From Octopus vulgaris (Eukaryota), in contig OX597823.1 in the NCBI GenBank assembly GCA_951406725.2, positions 43,462,001-43,526,000 of the forward strand: a stretch of 64,000 nt of DNA, in the 5' to 3' direction. Under the pieces are notes generated by a model, which searched no databases, was not told where the DNA came from, and worked only from the letters and a program-made list of their open reading frames with translations. Position 1 is the stretch's first letter. Each line of letters starts with the position of its first letter. Shown here piece by piece: positions 22,762 to 50,980 of the stretch. A program made the translations under genes and the position numbers.

Positions 22762-23910
22762 GTTTCTTTATTGGCCACACAGGGCTGCACACAGATGGGA
22801 CAAGTTACAAGGTAGAGCTTTTCTTTTGGGGATGAAAAAAAAGGGGGTGGCTTAGGTTTTCGATCAAGAGGGATCGTAAAAGGGAAGAAAAGAACAAAAA
22901 AAAAAGAAAAAAAGAATAAAAAAGAAAAGGAATAGAAGAAAAAAAAAGAAAGGGAAAGGAACAAAAGAAAGAGAAATGAAAAAAAAAAAAAAGGGGAAAA
23001 AAGGGAAGAGAAAAAAAAAAGGAACGATCAATAGGGATCGTGTATCACAGTGTTATGATATATGGTGTAAAGGGGAAAGCAAGTAAGGTTTATCCGTGGG
23101 AAGAAAAGCCTACGAAAAAGACCACGGTAACCTTGGTCAATATTGTTATATGTTACCACATTTGTTTGCAAGTGGGTAACCCTCTGTTTTCAATTTCTGG
23201 GTTCATAGGATTATGCTCAAGGTGGCTTCGTCATTCATACGTGCCACCCTTGCTACATTCACCCATCTTTTTTTAAAACATTCGCTAGACAAAACTTGCC
23301 CTCTACTCTCACTTTCCTTTTCAAGTGGTACTTGAAGAAGTTGATGAGAGATTGACCAGAGAGGAAAGTGTTTGTCTCCAATCCTTTCAGACGCGTCCAC
23401 CAGATACATTCTTTCGCCATAGCCAGAAGGATGATGAAAATAGCTCTTCCTTCCCGTTTGAAGGAAGGAGGCGTGACAATATTGACGATAGACTCAGCTG
23501 ATAAACCGACTCGTCCCACACGTGACAGCAGTTATTCGACACAAGCCCACAGGTCGGAAATTGTTGGACACTGCACGAGTGCGTGCAGAACGGTTTCGTC
23601 GCTCTGACCGCATCTCGGGCAGGTCAGCCCCGTGTTTCTCGAGCAGTGTCTGTAGAGCTTATCCCGAACGGGTAGCGCTTCTCGGTAACACTGCCAGGCC
23701 AGGGATCTCTGGAAGTTGTCCATGGGCCCTGGCCCGAAAGTCGTCCTGAACAGGCGGGTCAGGTACTCCTCGTCGACGTCCAGGTTCGCCCCGAGCTCGT
23801 CGTCGTACCTCCCCTCCACTAATCCCCTATAGAATGCTTTGGTTGTGTTGAAGTCACTCAAGGTCGACCCAGGACGGCAGAGTTGCTTGAGAGCAACGCG
23901 ACACTCGCGA
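22762..23910 (-). mobile_element. Tx1/L1-clade LINE, 5'-truncated: ORF2 C-terminus (zinc-binding region) plus 3'UTR
   Basis: WQCYREALPVRDKL...CPRCGQSDETVLHALVQC...AKECIWWTR; one stop and one frameshift; pyrimidine-rich 3'UTR with AATAAA; (GATA)n on both sides. Confidence 0.9.
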
Positions 23911-25699
23911 GATAGATAGACGATAGGCAGATAGTTAGATAGATAGATAGATAGATAGATAGATAGATAGATAGATAGATAGATAGATAGATAGATAGAT
24001 AGATAGATAGATAGATAGATAGATAGATAGATTGATTGATAGATAGATAGATTGATAGATTTTTAGACATAATTAATGGACTGACATAGTTATTATATCC
24101 AAAAGAAATGTACAGTATCACTAAGCTATATATGTACAGTATCACTAAGCTATATACGATAAGACAAGTTTAGAGCCAGAAATCCTTGTAAACTACAGAT
24201 AGAAAATCAACAGCAACACACACATGCACATATACACACGTACTTACACAGAGTCACATTCGCATATTGTCTTTGAAAGAAACCTCAACTCGTTGCAAAA
24301 TACATGATGGAGAACTGAACAAGATGTGTGTGTTTGTGTATGTGTAAGTGTGTTAGTGTGTGTGTGTGCGTGTGCGCGCGCCAACACGCACGTGTGTGCG
24401 TGCAGATTTTTATTACACTTTCCTAACAAGATTTGGTTTGACATCCATCTCACTGATATTGGCAAAATTGATATTAATATTGATATTAATATGAATATTG
24501 ATACCAATATTAAATATTAATATTAATGTTAATATCGATAATATATTATATATTTGAACACTTCTATTAATTTTGATATGAATATTATATCAATATTACT
24601 ATTCATATATGATATACTTGAGTAATTGTATAAGTTTTACCCATGTCATATCGAAGGAAAAGGTATGTATGCGGATTTATATCGAAGTAAACGATGTATT
24701 TAGACGGTAAAACTGATTGCTGCAATTATTTTTTTCTTATTTCCATTGAACGTGTATATTCATTGTTTAAGGACATTTTAATGCAGATGAGAAAGTCTGA
24801 CAACGTATCCTAAGAAACTGGTGGGAAAAATCAAGCGAGAAACAATAACTCATGCAGTTAGAAAGAGTACAGGAATATATCGAGGTATCCTTTACTGAGA
24901 CCGAAGCTCTCATCAGAACACTTATCATAGAGTGGAGTCTGCTAAAGCCAGCCAAAGGCTAAATATTGCTGTTTAACCGGAAGTCGAGCTTATCAAATAA
25001 GAATACAGTCCAAAAGTTTCCGGTTACCCAAGTTTACTTACAAGGCTAGGATGCATTCGGTGAAATGACAGAAGATACTTTCCCAAGGTTCTACACGTTA
25101 GAATCGAATCCGATATCATGTAAATTCTATGCTAACATTTTAAAGTAAACAGTCATGTCTTATGAACATCTGGTTCCAAGTTCAATAAATACAACAGGTA
25201 AATGTGTGTTCCTTTGTATTTACTTAAGTCTCTCCATGTCGAGCTGCTACTTCTCCGCATTGAGAGATCACAGCACCGCTGCTATGGGCATGTAATTAGA
25301 AGGTCGCAGGAAAGAATTGCATGATGGATTTTTCAAGCCGAGTCAATTGACAAGAAGCCTAGCGGTAGACGGAGAACAAGATGGGTAGATAATATATATA
25401 TATATATATATATATATATATACTCTCAGTCGGGCACGCTAGGGAATTTTGCGAGAAATTCTAATGATGGCTGCTTCTGATAGGACCTTATGGTGGTTGT
25501 GCCAGAGGGCTCTACTCCCACGACTCTCCCAGTAATAATGGGCGGCGAAAATCGGTAGATTCATGTAATTGGCGAATGAATTGCAGTTATATAAGCAGTT
25601 CTATAAAAATGCCCTCTCAGACTGCAGGTTTCCATGGCGATTTGTTACTCTCATCCGAGATCATCACGTCGACGAAATTTAGTGTATTAATATTTTGTA

Positions 25700-26135
25700 G
25701 GTGCAGGTATTGTAACCACATGGTTTCGGGTTCAATCATACAGCGCGGCACCTTGGGAAAGTGTCCTCTACTTTAGCTTCGGGTCGACCAATGACTTTTG
25801 AGGGAATTTGGTAGATGGAAAGTGTGACGACTCCATCGTATATATAATGTGTATGTGTGTACGTGTGTGTGTGTGTGTGTGTGTTTGTGTGTGTATGTGT
25901 GTGTGTGTGTGTACCTTTTCATCTATGTCTGTGACCCTTCACCACCACTTCCACAGCTTGACAACCAGCTTTGGAGTTTTACATCTCGGTAACTTAGTGT
26001 TTCGGTAAAAGAAAACAATAAAATAAGTATCAGACCTTAAAAAATACTGGAGCGATTTGTTCAGCAACAAACCCGTCAAAGCAGTATTCTAGCATGACCG
26101 CAGTCCAGTAAGGTGAAATAAGTGAAAATAAATGA
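25700..26135 (+). mobile_element. SINE family B, near full-length, degenerate
   Basis: AACCACATGGTTTCGGGTTCAATC...GGCACCTTGGGAAAGTGTC...GGTAGATGGAAA, internal (TG)n, 3' part CTAGCATGACCGCAGTCC. Confidence 0.75.
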
Positions 26136-48700: not shown

Positions 48701-50729
48701 TTCATGATAAAATTATTTTAGCATTTTATACTTAGCCCTATTTTCCTTATATATATATATATATATGTGTGTGTGTGTGTGTGTGTGTGTGTGTGTTTGT
48801 GTGCATACACATTCACAAAACACTCAAAAATTCCTGTATCTAAGCTATATGTATTTATACCTGTACACACATATGTGTATACATATAATGAATGTGTGTT
48901 TGTGTGTAGACAAATTAGGATAAGTTGTTCAATATAAACGATGTTAGAGAATGTATTCAACTGAATGGGAATTAAGGATCGAAAAATCGAAAAAGCACCC
49001 CACGAAACTCCCTAAAATTAGTCGAAGCATAAACGTATCGGTAATCGGTGATTCAATCGTCCAGCAAGTTTTAAATTCATATTTCGATTCATACCAGTGG
49101 CTTTGTGATCGCGTTTCAGTTTCAAATTAGCTTCATGAGTATGATACCATTGATATTGTTCAAATTAATATACACACATGCGCACATACCTACATACACA
49201 CACACACACACACATACATACATACATACATACATACATAATACATATATACAGAAAGACAGACATATATGCATGTATACCAACCATATTCGACGCTTCC
49301 AAAGTTCGAGCACACACACGCACATATATATACATACATGTATATATATATATATATATATATATATATATATATATATATATACGATGTACATATACCT
49401 CTATATCTGTATTTATCGATTAATATACATATGTATATATATATATTTATTAATATACATTATATATATATATATATATATATATATATATATACATATA
49501 CATACACTTATTTGTGTGTATGTAGGTATAGATACATACATATATGCATGTATGTATACATATATGCATGCATATATATATATATAAATGGATGCAAGTA
49601 TATATACATACATACGTACATACACTTATGTATGAAAGTAAATTTATTAATACTTGTTTTATGTATGTTATACTATCGAAAATTAATTTGAAATAGAACT
49701 CCCTCCAGGTATCCTGTTTATATGCATATATTTCAAGGTGGGGGTGTATAAATGTACGCGCGCACACACATGCACACACAACGCTCGAGCACATACACCC
49801 ACACGTGGATTGATAGATAGATAGATAGATAGATAGATAGATAGATAGATAGATAGATAGATAGATAGATAGATAGGTAGATAGATAGATAGATAGATAG
49901 ATAGATAGATAGATAGATAGATAGATAGATAGATGCATACATACATACATGCACACACAACGCTCGAGCACATACGCCCACACGTGGATTGATAGATAGA
50001 TAGATAGATAGATAGATAGATAGATAGATAGATAGATAGATAGATAGAAAGACACACAGGCAGACATACAGACAGACAGACAAATAGATAGATAGATAGA
50101 TAGATAGATAGATAAATAGATAGATAGATAGATAGATAGATAGATAGATAGATAGATGCATGCATACATACATACATACATACATACATACATACATGCA
50201 TGCATTCATACATACATACACACATACATACATACATACATACATACATACATACATACATACATACATACATACATACATACATACATACATTCTTAAC
50301 AACATAGATGTATATGCCGATACCTAATTTAGATTTAATATAATTGAACTAGATTGTAGAAATGCATTTTACTTGGAATGAAGCTTAAAACAGTTATCAC
50401 TAAAGTTAATTTATCCTTGACCTACAAATATTTACAAACCTGGTCTCACGCAATTATATTCGTAAGCATTTTTAATTAATATTTAATTAACAGAATATAG
50501 CCCCCCAGCCACATAAACTCCAACGCAAACTTAATGGTTAGTTCCCGGCTTTAGTTGTTTGCTCTCCTGTGTTATAACAGTAACATATATACAAGCAACA
50601 ATCACTAAAAACACATATATAAATATATGTATATACAACCCTGCGTTTACTACCAAACTAACACAGCTTTTGTGGGGTGGAGAGAGAAAAGCGATCTCAG
50701 TTTTTGTTTAGCAATATTTTTGATGTGTA

Positions 50730-50980
50730 GGGCGGTGAGCTGGCAGAATCTTTAGCATCCGTTTGTCTGTCTTTGTTTGTCCCCTCTGTGTTTAGCCACT
50801 TGTGGGTAGTAATGAAATAGGTATTTCATCTGTTTTTACGTTCTAAGTTCAAATTCCACCGAGGTCGACTTTGCTTGGGTCGATAAGTTAAGCACCAGCT
50901 GCGTACTGGATTTGATCCAATCGCCTGCCCCCTTCACATCGCACAAAATTTCGAGCCTTGTGCCTAGGCTATAGTAGAAA
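50730..50980 (+). mobile_element. SINE family A with a ~60-bp Tx1-like tail piece inside its head
   Basis: Head GGCGGTGAGCTGGCAGAATC, insert about 50760-50819, then GGTATTTC...GTTCAAATTCCACCGAGGTCGAC and the ordinary tail. Confidence 0.8.

Follow-up and report, generated by a model that had tools for sequence, protein, structure and literature searches.

Can a short interspersed element (SINE) take over the 3' end of a long interspersed element (LINE) of the L1 clade, and what becomes of that end once it has been acquired? This question is raised by a 64,000-nt stretch of the Octopus vulgaris genome (contig OX597823.1, positions 43,462,001 to 43,526,000; hereafter the window, in whose own coordinates all positions are given), in which the last 50 nt of a truncated LINE at 22763-23912 recur, in diverged form, in four copies of an abundant SINE (the T segment), while further copies with the same core carry an unrelated tail (the other tail). 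Judged from the alignments, the SINE segment and the 3' end of the L1-clade LINE are of common origin. We lean towards the view that the T segment was captured from an older relative of this LINE and that it is by now a likely relic, carried inside composite SINEs that were moved via the other, terminal tail. Published work is cited throughout for the accessible parts of its text.

The LINE consists of the end of ORF2 followed by a T-rich 3' untranslated region (UTR) finishing in AATAAAGAAA. Its open reading frame (ORF) carries a zf-RVT domain (Pfam scan, E 1.8e-7) and shares 67% identity across 202 aa with a relative, P0318, which combines endonuclease, reverse transcriptase and zf-RVT domains and aligns to human L1 ORF2p across residues 38-829 (E 1e-50, as against 4e-22 for R2, among PDB hits that include no CR1, L2 or RTE protein for contrast). 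Because P0318 has all three domains and aligns to the human protein, the element is by architecture, as seen through this relative, an L1-clade LINE. It is likely of Tx1 type, since this one copy sits between (TCTA)n-type tracts, which make up only 1.8% of the window, and Tx1 groups are described as targeting microsatellites (PMC4494074); no named Tx1 protein occurs among its protein relatives. These relatives comprise an Argonauta hians sequence (58% identity over 96% of the query) and short pieces from Octopus bimaculoides (97% and 83%). The closest ones (P0001-P0006, 64-71%) stem from short contigs in JGI, ENA and NCBI data, one of them a named protein of a Herbaspirillum metagenome-assembled genome, and are likely animal DNA in microbial assemblies. 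As 20 public sequencing runs share 54-78% of the sampled 31-mers of the LINE (query 22775-23905, which stops short of the terminus), near-identical LINE sequence is widespread; RNA runs are absent from the listed runs that contain these 31-mers.

The relation between the two elements was measured by blastn-short, with 22763-22830 as the query against the window (AT-rich and dense in simple repeats, with 12,244 of the 64,000 bases masked). Four matches fall in SINE copies, at 47299-47346 (76.5% of 51, E 2e-4), 29938-29982 (76% of 50, E 8e-4), 50777-50817 (75.6% of 41, E 0.003) and 29748-29794 (72% of 50, E 0.034), and the remaining three non-self matches reach at most 16 nt at E of 0.12 or above. 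Identity to the last 50 nt of the LINE amounts to 72-77%, and all four matches end at its final base. For each segment, none of 2000 dinucleotide shuffles attained the real score against the last 100 nt of the LINE, and none of 500 did so against its whole 1150 nt (the same under two scorings). Furthermore, when 12,526 tiles (70 nt each) of the window were compared with the last 52 nt of the LINE, the four SINE segments occupied the top ranks (25, 24.5, 21.5 and 21.5), the best tile elsewhere scoring 14.5. Two further LINE-like 3' ends in the window, which we take to be R4/Dong-like and CR1-like, score 6-7.5, against 21.5-25 for the LINE end at 22763, and all six other-tail segments compared with that end stay at chance level (p 0.16-1.0). 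Since the T segments belong to one family (85-89% alike among themselves), the four matches are in effect one test.

These results bear out much of what the earlier note had seen here, i.e. a colinear match of about 50 nt ending at the same point, which exceeds the shuffled controls it had named as a yardstick, and further SINE copies that keep the core with an unrelated tail. The letters that it quoted stand where it had placed them (the copy entered as 47298 begins at 47299). The LINE and three of the SINE copies are on the minus strand, and the copy at 50.8 kb is on the plus strand.

The LINE family seen here, which the same note had proposed as the partner of the SINE, does not fit that role well. 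Its distance from the SINE segments (22-28%) is about twice the spread among the segments themselves (11-15%), and for this reason it is probably not the donor. The SINE majority agrees with the LINE end in 39 of 50 columns (counted by hand), and the majority changes at 29956 and 29960, among those listed, gain one match and lose one, so that the segment comes no closer to the LINE. There are also indirect indications that the capture predates this LINE family. A second LINE 3' end was not obtained, since the searches for LINE relatives with DNA confirmed none of 89 candidates in metagenome contigs and none of 29 in genome contigs, and a motif that the T segment shares with the LINE end had no match in metagenome contigs. 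Folding, proposed in the note as a check on the shared tail, gave no support for a common hairpin either: eight folds gave z from +1.0 to -1.8, and none of the four pairs of a consensus hairpin shows a compensatory change (among five sequences only). A recent SINE insertion at the LINE end was ruled out, as the SINE linker is absent there and the divergence is too high.

How the T segment is carried within the SINE copies is summarised in Table 1; 14 SINE units of the window were aligned.

Table 1. Features of the LINE and of the SINE copies discussed in the text (window coordinates)
Feature	Position	Strand	Remarks
5'-truncated L1-clade (likely Tx1-type) LINE	22763-23912	-	1.15 kb; (TCTA)n-type tracts on both sides
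C-terminal part of ORF2	23203-23912	-	one in-frame stop (23532-23534), one frameshift (near 23300)
Last 50 nt of the LINE 3' UTR	22763-22812	-	counterpart of the T segment in the SINE; with AATAAA
SINE trimer, unit A	29938-30166	-	head (A-box-like and B-box-like motifs), core, linker, internal T segment 29938-29982
SINE trimer, unit B	29748-29929	-	head missing its first ~50 nt; core, linker, internal T segment 29748-29794
SINE trimer, unit C	29576-29745	-	head-less like B; core, other tail, A run; true 3' end of the trimer
Target-site duplication, 5' copy around the trimer	30169-30182	-	
Target-site duplication, 3' copy around the trimer	29563-29575	-	13 of 14 bases alike
SINE monomer D	47299-47537	-	disrupted head, then core and linker; T segment (47299-47346) terminal, at a (TA)n tract
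SINE composite E	50731-50985	+	~30 nt of head, internal deletion, internal T segment 50771-50817, junction, head-less unit from 50820 with the other tail
Three head-to-tail full-length SINE monomers	16850-17485	-	other tail, no T segment

The T segment is internal in three of the four cases and terminal in one, copy D, which is the only such copy in the window and has no second unit past it. In the three internal cases it passes, about 2 bases on, into GGTATTTC, and this identical junction occurs at two separate loci (twice at 29.7-29.9 kb and once at 50.8 kb, where the composite follows a trimer-like plan with a deletion). Thus, of the 'four tails' that had been described, one (at 47299) is a tail in the strict sense, and the other three run on past the LINE-like end into another unit. 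The duplication around A+B+C has a score matched by 0.4%, and an exact 10-mer matched by 0.16%, of 4987 random flank pairs, and no duplication is seen around unit A alone (37% of random flank pairs) or around A+B (15%). Recruitment to the Tx1 machinery through such tails, as originally worded, is therefore not upheld: three of four segments are internal, and the duplication, the one clear case outside repeats, encloses a trimer whose 3' end is formed by the other tail plus an A run. The 5' boundary of unit A at 30166-30167 is also indicated by contig loose ends. Since the trimer contains no run of four T, polymerase III could, to go by its letters, read through it.

The A-box-like and B-box-like motifs of the head were assigned by pattern; ARAGORN predicts no gene and Rfam gives no relevant match. 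A search with short motifs of the SINE core, aimed at Deu/Nin, Meta and CORE, had no match in supplementary files of PMC4824008 (2 of 3) or PMC11481361 (8 files), and the core motif had no occurrence in genome contigs or in viral contigs. For the other tail, no partner LINE was matched in the window or among the two further LINE-like ends. Past the three tandem monomers, the tail of the last one leads into its own inverted copy (16786-16900), forming a hairpin-like palindrome, and at 15830-15990 two SINE heads of opposite orientation stand back to back with about 45 bp between them.

Beyond the window, four public runs (X3, X6, X7 and X22) were compared with 29900-30215. One of them, X22, is uninformative (15 SINE reads out of 12.9 million); it shares its species label with the best-matching run, a label that probably denotes another genome. 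The others yield 339,013 (X3), 155,572 (X6) and 181,652 (X7) SINE contigs. The other tail branches off at 30001 in all three, which confirms that a single SINE core occurs with either of two 3' modules. The junction is likewise crossed in all three informative runs (71, 58 and 54 contigs in X3, X6 and X7), and the T segment stands directly upstream of the head-less start in 781, 333 and 316 contigs, respectively. Where the T segment ends, 24-29% of the summed depth comes from the crossing contigs, which is a rough floor. Among the 20 loose ends listed, six fall at the 5' end of the head and none where the T segment stops.

Taken together, these observations are best accommodated, in our opinion, by a capture followed by burial. 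Template switch or recombination would have placed an L1/Tx1 3' end on the SINE, and the resulting monomer (similar to the copy at 47299) may for a time have been copyable by the LINE lineage. It would then have been joined, at one fixed junction, to a 5'-truncated SINE with the other tail, most simply if the reverse transcriptase left one SINE RNA and continued at the 3' end of the second, a template jump that we liken to the 5' additions reported in SINEU (PMC4494074). The dimer or trimer, which has just one head and lacks a run of four T, could have moved as a single unit (one copy displays this, and the family presumably behaved alike), and dimers and trimers would have spread through their terminal tail.

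A number of points weigh against this reading. The flank boundaries of the trimer were picked by eye after the sequence had been seen, nine pairs were tested, and for one of the measures four other flank pairs, in simple or AT-rich repeats, also come out under 2%. The 3' end of the trimer is an A run, and its site, reading TTTT then AAGA, resembles that of an L1-type endonuclease; an L1-clade enzyme may in this one case have moved the trimer via its A run, without the T segment. Copy D has TATATATA on both sides and retains the A of the LINE before TAAAGAAA; as it ends at the T segment, with these flanks and this LINE-like A, a terminal T subfamily may exist and could be large. The head depth in the three runs (0.48-0.54 of core depth) is as expected if many units are without heads, yet it is also explicable by 5' truncation, and like the depth of the T-type linker (0.34-0.47 of the core) it is a summed contig depth, which does not equal copy number. 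Beyond the 20 loose ends considered there are 1299 more, and copies with a microsatellite at their end would collapse into few contigs and be ranked too low, so that terminal copies may be more numerous than these loose ends indicate. Finally, a single LINE copy was seen, and its last 50 nt are only putatively part of the family consensus.

The alternative that takes the resemblance at face value is a large monomer subfamily that ends in the T segment and is mobilised by a Tx1-type LINE (a stringent pair), with the composites as a side branch. It would explain why the match ends exactly at the LINE terminus; 72-77% over about 50 nt also lies within the range at which bivalve pairs have been accepted (72-95% over 35-61 bp, PMC11481361), terminal copy D stands in (TA)n and the LINE in its rare (TCTA)n-type tracts, and the T-type linker is deeper than the counted junction contigs explain. 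Such a pair would nevertheless have to be reconciled with three of four copies being internal, a duplication enclosing the whole trimer, a junction common in three runs, different microsatellites around the LINE and copy D, an unsupported hairpin and a SINE majority still just 39/50 like the LINE, and we regard it as unlikely. At the level of the family, the stringent pair was accordingly set aside, the similarity to the LINE terminus being present, and the terminal position (one of four) and the conserved hairpin not being found. Still less probable, to our mind, is that the LINE end entered the SINE once by a chimeric event as a mere passenger, never needed for recognition, and spread with the composite or its A-rich end by means of any enzyme. 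No structural conservation of the segment is visible, L1-clade elements are mostly without ends common to SINEs (PMC3472496) and template-switch additions are described for the Tx1-associated SINEU (PMC4494074), all of which would suit a passenger; the captured piece is, however, exactly the terminal 50 nt, a length typical of recognition tails, and a terminal monomer (copy D) with its own variant end stands at a separate locus.

The direction of transfer could also be reversed, the LINE lineage or just the copy at 22763 having taken its last 50 nt from the SINE. The extreme abundance of the SINE (155,572-339,013 contigs per run) and the single LINE end examined leave room for this, which we nonetheless hold to be very improbable: the SINE linker is absent upstream in the LINE end, that end differs more from the SINE segments than these do among themselves, though the LINE body is near-identical in 20 runs, and AATAAA is present in the LINE end and in none of the four SINE segments. 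As for chance or compositional convergence, the segment is short and pyrimidine/TG-rich, and the comparison is effectively a single one; the shuffles (0/2000), the first rank among 12,526 tiles and the co-terminal position led us to reject it, and the probability we would leave to it is negligible. We thus return to a T segment captured from an older relative of the LINE and since buried in composites. A more ambitious version, in which an animal L1/Tx1 lineage recognising its own RNA by a specific 50-nt 3' end, in the manner of L2, CR1 and RTE elements, drove a major octopus SINE subfamily into microsatellites, the subfamily being later absorbed into dimers served by a second LINE, is conceivable, and we consider it rather doubtful.

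Tail exchange and dimer formation are already known for many SINEs (PMC5786205, PMC3531059, PMC4824008, PMC11481361), and the unusual point is the L1-clade donor. That the pairing is an unusual one, as had been suggested, agrees with the rarity of L1-type tails in the literature, where L1-tailed SINEs account for 3 among 58 pairs, all of them plant or algal (PMC3472496, PMC3747384), i.e. maize/sorghum ZmSINE2 and ZmSINE3 with LINE1-1_ZM and Chlamydomonas SINEX-3_CR with L1-1_CR. In those pairs the segment is terminal, and the maize group has a hairpin with compensatory changes; the octopus case differs in its animal host, its mostly internal segment and its unsupported hairpin. The crocodilian SINEU/Tx1-Mar system (PMC4494074) is similar in that a SINE is tied to Tx1 machinery, with template-switch composites and a dimeric subfamily, but its link consists of shared target sites and 5' heads (no LINE with the 3' end of SINEU-1 was found there), whereas the octopus link is shared 3' sequence. 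The bivalve CORE, V, Meta and Deu SINEs (PMC11481361, PMC4824008, PMC4758252) also combine one core with alternative tails, over 35-61 bp at 72-95%, their partners being CR1, CR1-Zenon, L2 and Nimb in contrast to the L1-clade LINE found here; the term 'Tx1' does not occur in the main text of PMC11481361 or PMC4824008. LINE pieces that remain inside SINEs after tail replacement are known as LINE-derived middle parts (PMC5786205), although those come from the 5' regions of RTE and Vingi, and the octopus segment is an L1-clade 3' end buried by dimerisation. Complex dimeric SINEs offer a further likeness, as dimers there create new families (PMC3531059).

Octopus SINEs are annotated as tRNA-Deu, tRNA-CORE or unclassified and are very abundant, and L1-Tx1 families have been recently active (PMC8967140, PMC13282606); both the SINE and the L1-Tx1 LINE are probably already contained in existing repeat libraries. 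A SINE-LINE pair or composite of this kind is not named in the accessible parts of the octopus repeat papers (PMC13282606, PMC8967140, PMC9115989, bioRxiv 10.1101/2023.05.16.540928), nor is such a pair in those of the superfamily papers (PMC5804259, PMC4758252). More broadly, neither a SINE with a Tx1 tail nor the octopus SINE described here was met with in the open-licence PMC and bioRxiv literature, and Repbase, Dfam, SINEBase, the Zenodo library or Ohshima and Okada 1994 may already hold the pair.

If L1/Tx1 elements do recognise a specific 3' end, this would be the first case in animals of an L1-clade LINE paired with a SINE through a shared tail, and one SINE molecule would record two successive partners. 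An octopus SINE with an L1/Tx1 end would moreover be a natural test substrate for asking whether animal L1-clade elements beyond mammalian L1 read a specific 3' sequence or just an A tail. The case also bears on the amplification of SINE families, which account for about 12% of the genome in the common octopus (PMC13282606) and may have expanded partly as dimers and trimers that record an earlier partner. A host function is not implied.

The window holds several further repeats and remnants of mobile elements. A LINE 3' fragment (ORF 45971-46588, presumably CR1-like, with no Pfam hit) and TA-rich tracts are enclosed by a near-identical direct repeat of 217 bp (45533-45749 and 46902-47118), a length well beyond that of ordinary target-site duplications. 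The ORF at 47941-48660 on the plus strand has a GIY-YIG match that is weak (E 0.0017) and does not reach the Pfam cut-off; it is likely a Penelope-like fragment. Broken mobile-element ORFs lie at 37373-37786, 59171-59935, 61906-62268 and 62568-63092 (no Pfam hit in the three of the four that were scanned); going by their motifs, we take one of them to be Tc1/mariner-like and three to be R4/Dong-like. Lastly, a 703-bp self-matching block occupies 42838-43540, and a 470-bp block is duplicated at 59913-60378 and 60478-60947.

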